Shown here piece after piece: positions 3,609-61,549 of a DNA stretch of 64,000 bases (position 1 is its first letter; the number at the start of each line of letters is the position of its first letter). The position numbers and the translations under genes were made by a program. Source of the DNA: a virus; IMG/VR virus record IMGVR_UViG_3300025570_000007. One strand, given 5' to 3'. The notes under the pieces were generated by a model. That model saw only the letters and a program-made list of their open reading frames with translations. It was not told the DNA's origin and made no database searches.

Positions 3609-4427
3609 TTATAAGTTTTCTTTAATCCAATCTTTTAAAGTTGTTTTGTAATTAGAATATATTTCAAAATCACTATTAAGTTTGTTAAATAATATAGTAA
3701 CCTCTTCTCTACTATACATCTTCTCATTTGAAGGTTTAACTAATGTAGTTTTACATTTATTACAATACACTTTAGTTCCTACCCAATGTAATCGTTTAAA
3801 TGGATGTTCACATGTTTCAACTGAAGTAATAGTAACTTCATTGTTTTGGTTTAGTTTAATAGTATACCAAGTTTCACAACCATTAACATCACAAAGTTTC
3901 ATATCAGTTAAACAAGGTGTCACTCCTTCTATAGTACATTTATGATTAACTTCATACTCAACTTCCCACTCTCCATCTGGATTAGAAACATATTCTTTTA
4001 TGAATGATTGTTGTACTTGTGGTACAGATGTGCATTTATGTTTAACTAACTGTCCATCATAATGATGTCCAGCTTCATTACGTATATCTAATTTACATTT
4101 ATTACAATTAGTAAGCTTAGGGTCAGTAGTTGCTATGATTTTTCTATCATTCCAATGTACTTCATCTATGTCTTCAACTAAATAAGGTTCAGCATCTTTA
4201 AAAGGTTTACGTTCAGTAGCACACTCTAAATACATAGCCCAATCACCTACTTGAATAGGCTCTACATCTTGTGATACTGTGATGTATGCGTATTGAGGTT
4301 TACAGCAATTAGATTTTTGAGCATCTTTTTCTAGAACAATTAAATCCATATCCCAATTATATACAATCTGTCCTTTTTTACCGTAACCTTCTGTTGGTAG
4401 CATTACTACCTGTATTGGTTGTTTCAT
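3609..4427 (-). CDS. hypothetical Cys-rich phage protein
   Basis: 272 aa with several CxxC/CxH motifs. Confidence 0.7.
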   Translation of the reverse strand: MKQPIQVVMLPTEGYGKKGQIVYNWDMDLIVLEKDAQKSNCCKPQYAYITVSQDVEPIQVGDWAMYLECATERKPFKDAEPYLVEDIDEVHWNDRKIIATTDPKLTNCNKCKLDIRNEAGHHYDGQLVKHKCTSVPQVQQSFIKEYVSNPDGEWEVEYEVNHKCTIEGVTPCLTDMKLCDVNGCETWYTIKLNQNNEVTITSVETCEHPFKRLHWVGTKVYCNKCKTTLVKPSNEKMYSREEVTILFNKLNSDFEIYSNYKTTLKDWIKENL

Positions 4428-5059
4428 AGTTATAAGTTTTCTTTACTTATTAAAATCTCTACAATCAACACACATTTCGCTACATTTTGCACCCTCACCA
4501 TAAGTATCTGCATCGTGGCAAATAAACGATTTGCTAACACTACCTATACGTAATTGCTTTATTTCTGCTTCTAAAGAATCTATGTATAACTCTTGGTCTG
4601 CTATCAATTGTATTTTTGTAGCCTTATTAATATAATCTTTTCTATCAGGTCTTTTCATCAAAGATTGTCTTACTCCTCAAGGTCTATGGCGACCCAGAAA
4701 ATTGCCATAAAGATCGCTATACATGTAAATATCGAGCTTGTCGCTCTAGCTGTTTCTGACCATAATAAAGGATTAATTTCCAGGGTTATGAATGCCGAAG
4801 TAGCGTATATTGCTACTATTGCTAATAATGCTATTAAGAATGTCTTCATAAGCTTCCTTTTAATTTACTTATCTGAATTTGAGTATCTAGAATACCTTCC
4901 TCTTGGTCAATTATGCTCATTTCCAACATTCCTAATGCGTAGGCTTGTATCATATAACTCTGCATTTCAGGTTCGAGATTTCTAAATCCTAATTCTTCTA
5001 GGTTTTGTGTAGCTATTTGGGTTCTCTCTTCGTCTGTAATTGTCATGGTCTTCTATCTA

Positions 5060-5332
5060 TTAACGTATTAGAATTGAATCTGTAACCTTTGCACAATCTT
5101 TTAACAGTATCTTATAAGAAGTGACACTGTCTGTTAATAGTATATTGTTACCTGCTTTAATAGTTCCATTCTCTAACAACACTAGATTCGGATTATCAGA
5201 ATAAAATATGAAATTTAATGTATCGACTGTGGCATCGAAACGAGTCGCCTCTACGGAGTAATTACATTTTCTAACTTCTCCACATCCTACTCCTACGAAG
5301 GATAATACTAATACTAATAATACTTTTTTCAT
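5060..5332 (-). CDS. putative lipoprotein
   Basis: MKK + hydrophobic stretch + VGC lipobox. Confidence 0.6.
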   Translation of the reverse strand: MKKVLLVLVLSFVGVGCGEVRKCNYSVEATRFDATVDTLNFIFYSDNPNLVLLENGTIKAGNNILLTDSVTSYKILLKDCAKVTDSILIR

Positions 5333-52381: not shown

Positions 52382-52473
52382 AGTATAACCTCTATTTTAC
52401 TTACCTAAAGATAATAAAAAAAGCTCACCGAAGCAAGCTTTTTTAAATCTGTTTTTTTAAAATATTTTATTCT

Positions 52474-52676
52474 ACGAGAATTCTAAGTTGAGTTTTATGC
52501 CACTAACCCTGTGGCAGATAGGAAGCCTTGTTTATACTCCCGAAACAATGTTAAACCTTGCTTTACACGGGTACTCTCTGACTTAAAGAGTGATTTTCAG
52601 TCTGTCGAATTATGTATAGTTATGTGGCTCTTAACCACCTAAGTGTTTTTCGAAGTACCTCAGTCTTTTACTACGT
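52474..52676 (-). ncRNA. Y-RNA-like element Y1 (~200 nt)
   Basis: 5' ACGUAGUAAAAGACUGAGGUACUUCG / 3' ACUCAACUUAGAAUUCUCGU; downstream of TROVE. Confidence 0.7.
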
Positions 52677-52743
52677 TAAAATATTTTAAAAGAACGTTTT
52701 CTGTGTATAAATACACAAGAGGACCCGAAAGTCCTCTTTTTTT

Positions 52744-54288
52744 TTAAATTTCTATAGCTTCAATTGCTTTGATTACAGCTCTTGGATCTATTTCAACTCT
52801 TTTTACTAGCTCATACATTTCTGATGAGTATCCAGCTAACTGGTAAAGTTTTTGAGTTGTTGGCTTAAACATTGTAGTTGAATATCCACAGATGTTTATT
52901 GAATATACGTGCATCTTGTTATAGTTGCTTGGTGAAATGTACGAAGCTCCTTGCATATCCGAGATAATAAAGATTCTGTCGTACTTATTCCCAATCGTAC
53001 TAAAAATACCATTAAACTCAGTTCCATACCCTACAGTTCCCTGTAATTTTCTAAACTGATTTTTAATAGTATTTATACTATCTAAAGGATTGAACTTAAT
53101 TGCAGCGACACTACTAGCGAAGTGGTATACATCGGCGTTAATCCCTTTACCTAAAGTTGCAGCTACTAAAGCAGCTTTTTCAATAGCAGATTTACTACCA
53201 GGTTTCCCATTTGCTAATCTGATCGATGATCCCATTGATCCTGAACTATCAAAGATAACTGCAGTTTTACCTGCTGGAAATAGTGATGTTAGGTTCGGAA
53301 TCGCAAGTTCGTAAGCTTTATCTAGTGCTGTAATGAATGGTAACGCTTTTGACGCTCCTATATCCTGTAGTAACACTTCTAATGCTAAATCGATTTGGTG
53401 AGGGAATACTAGAGATTTTCTAATAGTTGCTTCATCTGTTAAGATAGCAATTGCTCCGTCAATCAATTCTTTATTTGAACTAGTTTGTAAGATATTACGT
53501 AAGTTACGTAGTAACGCTAAATACCCTATTTTTTTAGTTGCAATTAATTCAGCATAATTTGATTCCTTAGCTTGTGTTAACTCTACCTTAGCTTCCGCTT
53601 TAGTAATAGTACCTTCTTTTACTTTCTTAGCAACATCTTGTCCAGCTGATGTATTCTTATCTTCAACAGTGTTGAATTGCTTTAACTCTCCAGTCATTAA
53701 CTGTTTGAAAGTTTTTTGCATATCTTCACTTGGTTTTGGACGAACTAAGTTTACAATATCAACTAAGGAAACATCTTTATTCTTTCCTTGGTATTTTGCT
53801 AACTCGTAAGTATCAGCAGCCTCTAAAGCAGCTTTAAATCCTTTCTTCATTGCGTTTGGCAATGGTTTTCCGGGATTGAAGTGTTGATAACAAGCTACTA
53901 TTTCTAGTAAGTCATCTAACCTAAACACGATACCTCCTGTTTTAAATTTCTTACTTCTCTTTGAGAAGAATTTACGTGCAATTCCTCTACCTGATAGGTA
54001 AGGTGCTAATGCTACTGCTCCAAACTGGGTAACACTTCTTTGGCCCATTACAGATCTAGCATATACTAGTGCTTTAGCTACGAATTCAGGTTCTTTTTGA
54101 GCTAACTTTACGATAAGCTCTTTGAATCTAACTTCTCTGTCTGATAATTTCTCGTAATAAGTATTATCAAAACCTGTTGCTAAAATAGCAACTAATTCAT
54201 GTTTTGGATCTAATTTGTAACCTTCACCTCCTTGGTGGTTTGTTACTGTAGGTGTTGCAGTCTTTTTGTTTTTGTTGTAAACTGACAT
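52744..54288 (-). CDS. rsr: TROVE-domain Ro60/Rsr RNA-binding protein
   Basis: NHQGGEGY, YQ/YE-LAKY, ALLRNLRN, vWA DSSGSM and ISDMQ motifs. Confidence 0.92.
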   Translation of the reverse strand: MSVYNKNKKTATPTVTNHQGGEGYKLDPKHELVAILATGFDNTYYEKLSDREVRFKELIVKLAQKEPEFVAKALVYARSVMGQRSVTQFGAVALAPYLSGRGIARKFFSKRSKKFKTGGIVFRLDDLLEIVACYQHFNPGKPLPNAMKKGFKAALEAADTYELAKYQGKNKDVSLVDIVNLVRPKPSEDMQKTFKQLMTGELKQFNTVEDKNTSAGQDVAKKVKEGTITKAEAKVELTQAKESNYAELIATKKIGYLALLRNLRNILQTSSNKELIDGAIAILTDEATIRKSLVFPHQIDLALEVLLQDIGASKALPFITALDKAYELAIPNLTSLFPAGKTAVIFDSSGSMGSSIRLANGKPGSKSAIEKAALVAATLGKGINADVYHFASSVAAIKFNPLDSINTIKNQFRKLQGTVGYGTEFNGIFSTIGNKYDRIFIISDMQGASYISPSNYNKMHVYSINICGYSTTMFKPTTQKLYQLAGYSSEMYELVKRVEIDPRAVIKAIEAIEI

Positions 54289-54372: not shown

Positions 54373-54441
54373 TAAGTAGAGAATGTTAAGAAGAGCGTTT
54401 GTTTCTGAATGCGAAGTAACTCTGTCTATGACTACTACTTA
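54373..54441 (-). ncRNA. Y-RNA-like element Y2 (minimal)
   Basis: UAAGUAGUAGUCA..AGAGUUACUUCG / GCUCU..UUCUCUACUUA. Confidence 0.7.
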
Positions 54442-54444
54442 TAC

Positions 54445-54529
54445 TGTTCAAGGGAATGGGTGCAGTGGGATATTGTTAATTAGATTTGAAGTCTGAGTCG
54501 AAGTAACCCGGTTGCTAACCACTTGAATA
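54445..54529 (-). ncRNA. Y-RNA-like element Y3 (anticodon-loop-like cargo)
   Basis: UUCAAGUGGUUA..GGGUUACUUCG / AUCCC..UUCCCUUGAA; internal AGA-CUUCAAA-UCU. Confidence 0.7.
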
Positions 54530-54534
54530 TGTTG

Positions 54535-54690
54535 TTATAAGGGAATGGGTGATGACAGCTAGTTTTAACGCGCCTTTACCAATTTGGCCACCTCCCAAGA
54601 TTTCTTACTTTCTTAGTTGGGAGGGAAGGACTCGAACCTCCAAATACGTGCTCTAAATGCGATGTAACTGTATTATCTTACCACTTATAA
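54535..54690 (-). ncRNA. YrlA-like RNA Y4 (permuted tRNA-like domain)
   Basis: shared stem enclosing T-arm GGAGGUUCGAGUCCUUC, closed acceptor CCUCCCAA/UUGGGAGG, then D-arm GCCAAAUUGGUAAAGGC. Confidence 0.85.
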
Positions 54691-54697
54691 TATGTTT

Positions 54698-54845
54698 AAA
54701 AATAAAGAAGGGAACGGCTAACAGAGTGTATATCGTGCTCTACCAACTGAGCTACTGAAGGGATATATTCCCCCAGGCTGGATTCGAACCAGCGACCACG
54801 TCGTTACAAGCGAAGTAATTCTTATTATTACCACTTTTTATTTTT
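54698..54845 (-). ncRNA. YrlA-like RNA Y5 (permuted tRNA-like domain)
   Basis: shared stem enclosing T-arm GCUGGUUCGAAUCCAGC, closed acceptor CUGGGGGA/UCCCUUCAG, D-arm GCUCAGUUGGUAGAGC. Confidence 0.85.
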
Positions 54846-55158: not shown

Positions 55159-55229
55159 AAGCGGTCGTGGGACTCGAACCCAACCGTAGGGTTATGAGCC
55201 CTGCATGCTACCAGTTACAACACCCCGCG
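55159..55229 (-). tRNA. tRNA-fMet-like (CAT), imperfect acceptor stem
   Basis: GGG/CCC anticodon stem, C1 mismatch; two extra acceptor mismatches. Confidence 0.7.
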
Positions 55230-58999: not shown

Positions 59000-59215
59000 G
59001 ATACCTAGTTTTCGTACTAGGTAAACGTGAATCCGTGCTCCCTTAGAAACACCTAAATTCAACAGCTGCTAGGCTGCTAATGCAAAGTTGTCGTTTGCGT
59101 AAATACTAATCTACTATCATCCACGTTTTCCATTGTCAAAACCAGTCGGCCCCATGGTCTTAAAAGTCTCATAGTGGAGCCGGAGAGTATCGAACTCTCG
59201 TCCAACGAAATGTCA
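59000..59215 (-). ncRNA. ssrA: permuted two-piece tmRNA, tag ANDNFALAA
   Basis: acceptor piece GGACGAGAGUUCGAUACUCUCCGGCUCCA precedes GGGGCCGACUGGUUUUGAC; G3:U70; tag ORF 59098..59069; outer ends approximate. Confidence 0.9.
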
Positions 59216-59240
59216 ATAATTATCAACGATTTGTATTTTG

Positions 59241-59314
59241 TACCTCCAGTAAGACTCGAACTTACAGGTCTTAACGTCCGTAGCGTTATGTTTTTCCAGT
59301 TAAACTATGAAGGC
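59241..59314 (-). tRNA. tRNA-Arg (ACG)
   Basis: loop CUACGGA. Confidence 0.9.
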
Positions 59315-60282: not shown

Positions 60283-60290
60283 AGTTTTTG

Positions 60291-60362
60291 TCGGCCTAGT
60301 AGGATTTGAACCTACGACTTGCTGTGTATCGGACAGCTACTCTACCGCTGAGTTATAGACCG
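60291..60362 (-). tRNA. tRNA-Ile (GAT), C at position 33
   Basis: GCUGU-CCGAUAC-ACAGC. Confidence 0.85.
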
Positions 60363-60486
60363 TGGTGGGGAAGGTTGGATTTGAACCAACAATGTCAAAT
60401 TTCAAGTTTGATTGTTTACCGAAGTAACTCAATTGTATTACTACCATTTCTGAAGAAAGTCTACGCGAGTTGTTTATTTCTTCCCC
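60363..60486 (-). ncRNA. tRNA/Y-module chimera (anticodon UGA; Y module replaces D-arm)
   Basis: GGGGAAG/CUUCCCC-ACCA acceptor, UCAAA-CUUGAAA-UUUGA, T-arm; permuted module closed by GAAA. Confidence 0.8.
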
Positions 60487-60649: not shown

Positions 60650-60758
60650 TGGCTGGGGTTTAGAGATTTTGTTTAATACTCTCTCCGGGGCCACCCCCTT
60701 TAAGTACTTTTTCAACCATTTTTTCCTGTTTCCTTCTTTCGGTTAGGTCTCCGCCTCG

Positions 60759-60829
60759 TGCCGCCAGTAGGAATCGAACCTACCCAGTAGAGTTTTACAG
60801 ACTCGCTCGGCACCTTGCCTGTTGTCGGC
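60759..60829 (-). tRNA. atypical tRNA-Tyr (GTA)
   Basis: GAGU-CUGUAAA-ACUC; shortened D-arm; no long variable arm. Confidence 0.65.
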
Positions 60830-60837
60830 TTTAAAAA

Positions 60838-60970
60838 AATTAAGAGAAAGTTTAGAAGAGCTGTTTTGGTTGCAGATACGGGATTTGAACCCGTCACCTA
60901 TTGATTTGAAGTCAATTGCTCTACCATGTGAGCTAATTTGCGAAGTAACTCTTTCCATTACTACTTAATT
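60838..60970 (-). ncRNA. Y-RNA-like element enclosing a whole tRNA
   Basis: AAUUAAGUAGUAA..AAGAGUUACUUCG / AGCUCUU..UUCUCUUAAUU flanking tRNA 60867-60942. Confidence 0.8.
60867..60942 (-). tRNA. tRNA with UCA anticodon (opal-suppressor-like), encoded CCA
   Basis: AUUGA-CUUCAAA-UCAAU; canonical D and T arms; C1:A72 and A5:C68 mismatches. Confidence 0.8.
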
Positions 60971-61336: not shown

Positions 61337-61457
61337 AGTTGCCCGTCTTTCCGGGCGTCAAACGATTGTTCAAGCGGCGAATGCCACTGCGTGGAAGAAA
61401 CCACAATTAAGAACCTCTACTTACCTACTATCGTTACACAGGCGTTGTTTTATTTTG

Positions 61458-61549
61458 CGGAAGATGGCGGATTCGAACCCCCACATCTGTTACAATACTC
61501 GCTTTTCAAGAGCGCCGCCGCTACCCAGAATCTTTCGGCTTAATCTTCC
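61458..61549 (-). tRNA. tRNA-Ser (TGA), enlarged D-loop
   Basis: CGCU-CUUGAAA-AGCG; long variable arm; G73. Confidence 0.8.

Follow-up and report, generated by a model that had tools for sequence, protein, structure and literature searches.

The stretch of DNA described here, 64,000 nucleotides of the IMG/VR virus record IMGVR_UViG_3300025570_000007 (referred to below as the window), belongs to a 104-kb, about 63% complete phage record in which a cluster of tRNA genes ends at a gene for the TROVE protein Ro60. Inside this cluster, on the minus strand that is common to all 23 tRNAs called by ARAGORN in the window, lies an RNA gene of 124 nt (60363-60486), about 6 kb from the Ro60 gene and on the same strand. 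It combines a tRNA body with the stem of a Y RNA (Y module), present in circularly permuted form at the position of the D-loop, and we call it the D-loop element.

The Ro60/Rsr gene (52744-54288, minus strand) codes for 514 amino acids with a TROVE domain (Pfam, E 1e-14) and matches Ro60 of Thermus phage phiLo over its full length (PDB 9KOP/9L5Y, E 2.5e-15); its product is the probable protein partner of the element. Six other Y-like RNAs of the window, all on the minus strand, share one stem, in which a first helix, bulged at a U, is followed by an internal loop, another helix and the core GUUACUUCG. Two of them (54535-54845) have the YrlA order, carry the module in normal orientation and match Rfam YrlA with 36.3 and 20.9 bits, scores that lie below the cut-off of 69 and reflect the tRNA-like part only. 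Two short Y hairpins (54373-54529) are located just upstream of the Ro60 gene and another module-bearing RNA (52474-52676) downstream of it. In the sixth (60838-60970), the normally oriented module surrounds a whole tRNA with anticodon UCA. This anticodon reads the UGA stop codon; the tRNA has an encoded CCA and two acceptor mismatches and is called as selenocysteine tRNA by ARAGORN; the same UCA loop is present in the short hairpin at 54445-54529.

Architecture of the element

Reading along the RNA, the 5' strand of the 7-bp acceptor stem (60480-60486, pair probability 0.99-1.0) is preceded by an A-2/U-1 leader and followed by positions 8-15 (60472-60479), an A-rich remnant of the D-stem 5' strand that is unpaired here and paired in many relatives. 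The permuted module comes next: its 3' strand (60451-60471; helix 2 strand at 60466-60471, an internal loop, helix 1 strand at 60451-60455), a GAAA tetraloop closing the stem (60447-60450; GNRA in 36 of 71 copies), and its 5' strand (60420-60446), which consists of helix 1 with the bulged U (60441-60446), an internal loop, the helix 2 strand and, at its end, the conserved core GUUACUUCG (60420-60428). The segment G18-G19-U20-A21, with GG placed by the Rfam tRNA alignment, and the D-stem 3' remnant occupy 60412-60420. The rest is tRNA: a 5-bp anticodon arm (60395-60411) with loop CUUGAAA and anticodon UGA, identical in its loop to the ordinary Ser(UGA) tRNA of the phage; a 4-nt variable loop and canonical T arm (60374-60394); and the acceptor 3' strand with A73 and encoded CCA (60363-60373), which meets position 1 of tRNA-Ile (60290-60362) with no spacer. 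All pieces listed in an earlier sequence-only reading, including this junction, were recovered where it had placed them, and its description of an inverted YrlA topology also holds, with normal tRNA order, free acceptor ends and a closed Y stem.

Standard searches do not see this gene as a whole. ARAGORN passes it over, and the Rfam match to tRNA (29.9 bits) is confined to its 3' half; the gene departs from the canonical cloverleaf by A8, an unpaired D-stem and an insert of about 50 nt in place of an 8-10 nt D-loop. Our family model R2 gives it 106 bits (next best 43), this copy having been part of the training set. By RNAfold the acceptor and T stems are stable, helix 2 is moderate and helix 1 weak (pairing probability 0.04-0.12), and the folding energy of the single sequence does not differ significantly from shuffles (z -1.4). 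Structural support was therefore taken from relatives. A fold derived from the Rfam alignment, with the core as a small D-arm, was also considered; it is not conserved by eye, helix 2 covaries, and we regard it as a minor possibility.

Copies in other phages and covariation

Pattern scans of viral and metagenome contigs yielded 71 distinct copies, in addition to that of the cultured phage crAss001; four homologues were met in phage loci fetched by way of Ro60 alone, and BLAST revealed unannotated copies in crAss001, cr112_1 and 14 PhiCrAssBcn records. In the alignment of 39 copies, 93.9% of cells are paired and two-sided changes affect 20 of 26 pairs, with 39-51% in slid controls; these figures are partly circular because the parser demanded acceptor and helix-1 pairing. 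Helix 2, which the parser did not impose, is present in 64 of 71 copies versus 28% of shuffled sequences, and a 5-bp anticodon stem with U33 and R37 in 34 of 71 versus 3%. Among hits retrieved by pattern only, the permuted helix 1 occurs in 47 of 51 (10% of shuffles) and both module helices in 39 of 51 (1.2%). The bulged U is conserved, and the alignment contains an invariant UAG after the bulged helix as well as GUUACWUCG; conservation of the acceptor is partly an artefact of the first search pattern, and later patterns retrieved other acceptors. A loose permuted-stem pattern gave, among the matches listed, mostly chance hits. The sequence-only reading had tied its proposal to conservation of the permuted module in homologues, and this expectation is borne out: relatives exist and their helices covary. 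We conclude that the D-loop element is a real, conserved new variant of phage Y RNA, of YrlA type.

The same data bear on the idea that such genes are functionless, decaying by-products of recombination between Y cores and tRNA genes. In its favour one may cite the patchy presence of the element, its tandem duplication in L038 and L135, and the deletion chimera L488, whose halves meet in the shared core (see below). Against it stand compensatory changes in every helix tested, a position between tRNA-Asn and tRNA-Ile conserved in L163 and G001, and retention across crAss-like, 170-kb and 400-kb phages, and we hold this explanation to be highly improbable.

Of 69 pattern matches in bacterial genomes two are real, both in contigs of metagenome-assembled genomes nearly identical to phage copies, and a scan of 20 Ro60-positive Bacteroidota genomes with model R2, 150 candidates being scored per genome, found no element. 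We found no D-loop or open-ended form in the literature, a mention in the reviews of Sim and Wolin (2018, 2020) or Burroughs and Aravind (2016) being possible; the three tRNA-mimic families of a 2026 preprint are, in its accessible part, other RNAs.

Site of insertion

In many relatives the D-stem that flanks the insert covaries (67% of cells paired, all four pairs changing two-sidedly), and the core is followed, at once or after a few bases, by GG, G18G19 surviving in many copies. Because relatives keep the D-stem around the insert and GG after the core, the module is an insertion into the D-loop. The earlier view that the D-arm had been replaced thus describes this copy, which has lost its D-stem secondarily, and does not extend to the family. 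Retention of GG goes with that of a canonical T-loop (53 copies with both, 16 with neither, 3 with T-loop only, none with GG only), as expected for two parts that form the tRNA elbow.

The D-loop is not the only site used. The anticodon stem carries the permuted module in tRNAs whose D arm is intact, at L082:9460-9595 (minus strand), L406:2982-3117 (plus), L419:3890-4021 (minus) and in crAss001 (L445, about 3752-3897), these insertions representing an un-permuted YrlA layout. At L067:1269-1400 (plus) it sits in the 8/9 linker between the acceptor stem and an intact D arm, a third insertion site. A deletion chimera at L488 (about 4960-5120, minus) joins an anticodon-stem-type 5' half to a D-loop-type 3' half via the shared core, a sign of recombination between cores.

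D-loop introns are known in archaea, and an insert in this position might be excised to give a normal tRNA; its removal in silico restores a tRNA callable by ARAGORN in 43 of 71 copies. For 60363-60486, however, a tRNA was called in only 5 of 143 trial excisions. The alignment has no fixed junctions, the insert is the same stem as that of the free-standing Y RNAs, and the body decays in ways that a spliced working tRNA could not afford. Since no splicing endonuclease is reported in bacteria either (10.1101/312249), we consider the intron the least probable of the explanations weighed here.

Association with Ro60

A Ro60 homologue is encoded in 28 of 38 viral records with the element and in 10 of the 11 near-complete ones, over a background of 97 in 50,697 phage records (0.2%). 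In crAss001 (MH675552) the element occupies 96200-96341, at a distance of 0.5 kb behind the TROVE gene gp96, and a similar core motif is found less than 1.5 kb from rsr in three Bacteroidota genomes. Two broad features of bacterial and phage Y RNAs are present, namely proximity to Ro60 on the same strand and a bulged helix beside a large internal loop. The inserted stem is probably a docking stem for phage Ro60; as it does not contain the published GNCGAA motif (PMC4201824), we infer binding from this context.

Ends, anticodons and charging

The ends of the element look maintained. The A-2/U-1 leader is present in 55 of 71 copies (315 of 616 ordinary tRNAs from the same loci) and an encoded CCA in 22 of 71 (47 of 616); in the window, among tRNAs checked, only the two module-bearing ones encode CCA. 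Copies without a T-loop encode CCA in 14 of 16 cases, those with a T-loop in 8 of 55, a distribution that might mean that CCA has to be encoded in RNAs on which the CCA-adding enzyme would not act.

Anticodons vary widely, 16 being represented among 54 well-parsed copies. One acceptor stem bears six of them, and scaffolds 97-99% identical differ as Thr versus Pro. An ordinary tRNA of the same anticodon often lies in the same locus; here it is tRNA-Ser(UGA) at 61456-61549 (minus strand), about 1 kb off, read by eye, with a long variable arm and G73, which makes 60363-60486 redundant for decoding. The existence of a separate, normal Ser(UGA) tRNA was a claim of the earlier reading. This tRNA has an enlarged D-loop and was missed by ARAGORN. 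In the crAss001 lineage (L477-L497), one scaffold is found with either of two allelic cassettes, each comprising anticodon arm and T arm and each with a Pro anticodon (AGG or UGG).

Bacterial Ser identity depends on G73 and a large variable region (PMC9976931). The Ser(UGA) copies have A73 in 8 of 11 cases and short variable arms, and 60363-60486, with its 4-nt variable loop and A73, fits seryl-tRNA synthetase poorly, as the earlier reading had noted. G3·U70, the mark of alanylated mimics (tmRNA, tRNA-Ala), is found in none of 72 copies. Given the short variable arm, A73, lack of G3·U70 and A at position 8, this copy is probably uncharged: it is probably neither serylated nor used in decoding. 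The label "possibly chargeable" given to it earlier is thus unlikely for this copy and plausible for other members.

Such members raise the alternative of a charged, Ro60-tagged tRNA, aminoacylated by a synthetase that reads the anticodon; Ro60 would store, protect or release it for use in translation or in aminoacyl donation. The maintained-looking ends, wobble-only anticodon changes and the tRNA calls after insert removal given above speak for it, as do Asp copies with G73 and GUC, Met copies with A73 and CAU and Tyr copies with A73 and GUA. Bacteroides presumably has an archaeal-type prolyl-tRNA synthetase. The crAss001 copy fits the archaeal-type Pro set of A73, G1-C72, G2-C71, G3-C70, G35 and G36 (PMC9976931). 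Charging would be possible for copies of the Asp, Met, Tyr and Pro type. On the other side, the Ser determinants are missing from the commonest class, this copy included, and copies of the His, Cys, Thr and Ile type have either an unsuitable discriminator or no C2-G71. Only 18 of 72 copies have U8, and an insert of 50 nt in the D-loop, with a 58-kDa ring bound to it, would be expected to impede the ribosome. Over 38 copies the discriminator fits the anticodon in 22, versus 17.3 by chance (p 0.064, borderline). Charging may occur in some members and would be no rule of the family; as a general explanation it seems to us distinctly unlikely.

Transcripts and other genes of the cluster

Exact pieces of the locus occur at low depth in four freshwater metatranscriptomes; among the contigs listed none spans 60363-60486, missing cover being uninformative and contigs of this kind unable to show RNA ends, strand or level. 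The module-bearing RNA behind the Ro60 gene (52450-52686, minus strand) forms its own contig of 208-275 nt in all four metatranscriptomes examined, a weak hint of a discrete RNA.

The cluster contains further unusual genes on the minus strand. A tRNA-Tyr(GUA)-like gene (60756-60829), whose variable loop is short and whose D arm is unusual, was missed by both ARAGORN and Rfam, and a weak tRNA-like gene with a CAU anticodon loop (55160-55228, Rfam 27.7 bits) was not called by ARAGORN. A permuted transfer-messenger RNA (tmRNA) lies within the cluster at 59028-59273 (Rfam match of 64 bits at 59069-59227).

Comparison with known RNAs

YrlA (RF02553; Chen et al. 2014, PMC4201824; 10.1101/312249) is the closest known system: it likewise consists of a tRNA-like domain and a bulged stem with a YUAY-like core, is encoded with Ro60 on the same strand, and has YrlA-order sisters in the window with the very stem of the element. 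YrlA, however, is permuted (T arm, closed acceptor, D arm), ends in the Ro-binding Y stem, has no CCA and no anticodon loop, and bears the module at the anticodon stem, whereas the D-loop element has free acceptor ends, an anticodon loop and a closed Y stem in the D-loop. Rfam YrlA gives no match to 60363-60486 up to E 10. Processed YrlA of Mycobacterium smegmatis (PMC4201824) is also bound by Ro60, as we suppose for the element, and has a 7-bp acceptor stem with CCA, generated by an RNase P cut and CCA addition; it is composed of two processed pieces and lacks an anticodon arm, while the element is genetically built as one piece that includes it.

Phage phiLo offers a homologous phage Ro60 with phage-encoded partner RNAs, Yrl1 and Yrl2 (PMC12135203; PDB 9KOP, 9L5Y); unlike the element, these are CGAA-motif hairpins, with no tRNA body reported in the part of that account available to us. 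The tRNA-like domain of tmRNA shares with the element a G-rich acceptor with A73-CCA, a T arm and an abnormal D region. The element differs from it in lacking G3·U70 and a reading frame and in possessing an anticodon arm, and the phage encodes its own tmRNA.

Discussion

We propose that the D-loop element is a tRNA mimic, bound by Ro60, whose exposed CCA end and anticodon loop serve to bait host enzymes that attack tRNAs, and give this reading a probability of roughly 0.45. Its two parts differ in strength: that the RNA is an unspliced Ro60 partner is very probable, and, this granted, the odds of a bait role are about even. The gene would be transcribed together with the tRNA cluster and its 5' end made by RNase P; a single RNase P cut at the start of tRNA-Ile would finish both RNAs, leaving the encoded CCA as 3' end. 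Phage Ro60 would then dock on the inserted stem and stabilise the RNA, the D-loop being, on the structure predicted, a site at which such a handle obstructs neither working end of the tRNA. Thus exposed, the RNA could act in infection as a bait or a competitor, directed at host enzymes that sense or attack tRNAs, for example anticodon nucleases or toxins that modify CCA ends, and so spare working tRNAs. Host defences do destroy specific tRNAs and phages answer with tRNAs (PMC11555353), and toxSAS and MenT toxins modify CCA ends, according to the accessible parts of the respective reports (PMC11559606, PMC11541572). A bait would fit the maintained ends, the real-looking but changing anticodon loops and the redundancy with normal tRNAs.

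Several points weigh against this proposal. Co-occurrence with Ro60 is inflated by shared descent, the copies are related, so that counts overstate independence, and those without a T-loop may represent only two lineages. A 93% complete crAss-like record (G036; L451/L452) has elements and no detectable Ro60; Ro60 is missing from its expected place there, and the neighbouring element has mismatched acceptor strands, which suggests rearrangement. Seven of 11 Ro60-selected records have no copy, and the element is therefore optional. The GNCGAAN0-1G motif that published YrlAs carry in the 5' strand is absent from the module, and the Rfam YrlA model leaves the stem part unmatched. The G73 of Asp and Asn copies fits charging, and some anticodon changes leave the amino acid unaltered, such as Thr UGU/CGU/GGU and the AGG/UGG switch of the crAss001 lineage.

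A different use of the same complex would be a RYPER-type adaptor for RNA decay or repair, in which Ro60 receives a host tRNA-binding factor (polynucleotide phosphorylase (PNPase), a synthetase, EF-Tu, the CCA enzyme or a ligase) by way of the tRNA body and the anticodon is incidental. In known systems a Y RNA links Ro60 to PNPase (PMC4201824), and Ro60 of phiLo and its Yrls are described, in the available part of the report, as binding host PNPase (PMC12135203). Seven modules with different cargo at one locus would suit an adaptor set, and free variation of the anticodon is compatible with it. Yet no ligase consistently accompanies the element: RtcB is present in 1 and Rnl2-type ligase in 5 of 11 near-complete genomes, and RtcB was not found in the incomplete record studied here. 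Moreover, the anticodon loops keep real tRNA form, and 16 copies have given up the elbow, the surface conserved in YrlA, yet retain CCA. An adaptor thus appears to us rather unlikely.

More broadly, one may envisage a phage family of aminoacylatable tRNAs with a portable Ro60-docking stem (in the D-loop, anticodon stem or 8/9 linker), by which Ro60 would hold tRNA bodies, charged or with a tuned anticodon, as a dedicated defence against tRNA-targeting immunity of the host, the anticodon being retuned to host defences; this broader picture is doubtful. What the findings do mean is that the Y stem is a portable module found at several sites of tRNAs, in genes that tRNA finders miss. Why bacterial Y RNAs mimic tRNA has been an open question since 2014. 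Published YrlAs have neither a free CCA end nor an anticodon loop; the D-loop family has both, and these free ends, the signs of their maintenance and the varying anticodon make the question accessible to specific tests of charging, cleavage and end modification. As crAss001 and PhiCrAssBcn phages grow on Bacteroides intestinalis, the element is open to such work in culture.
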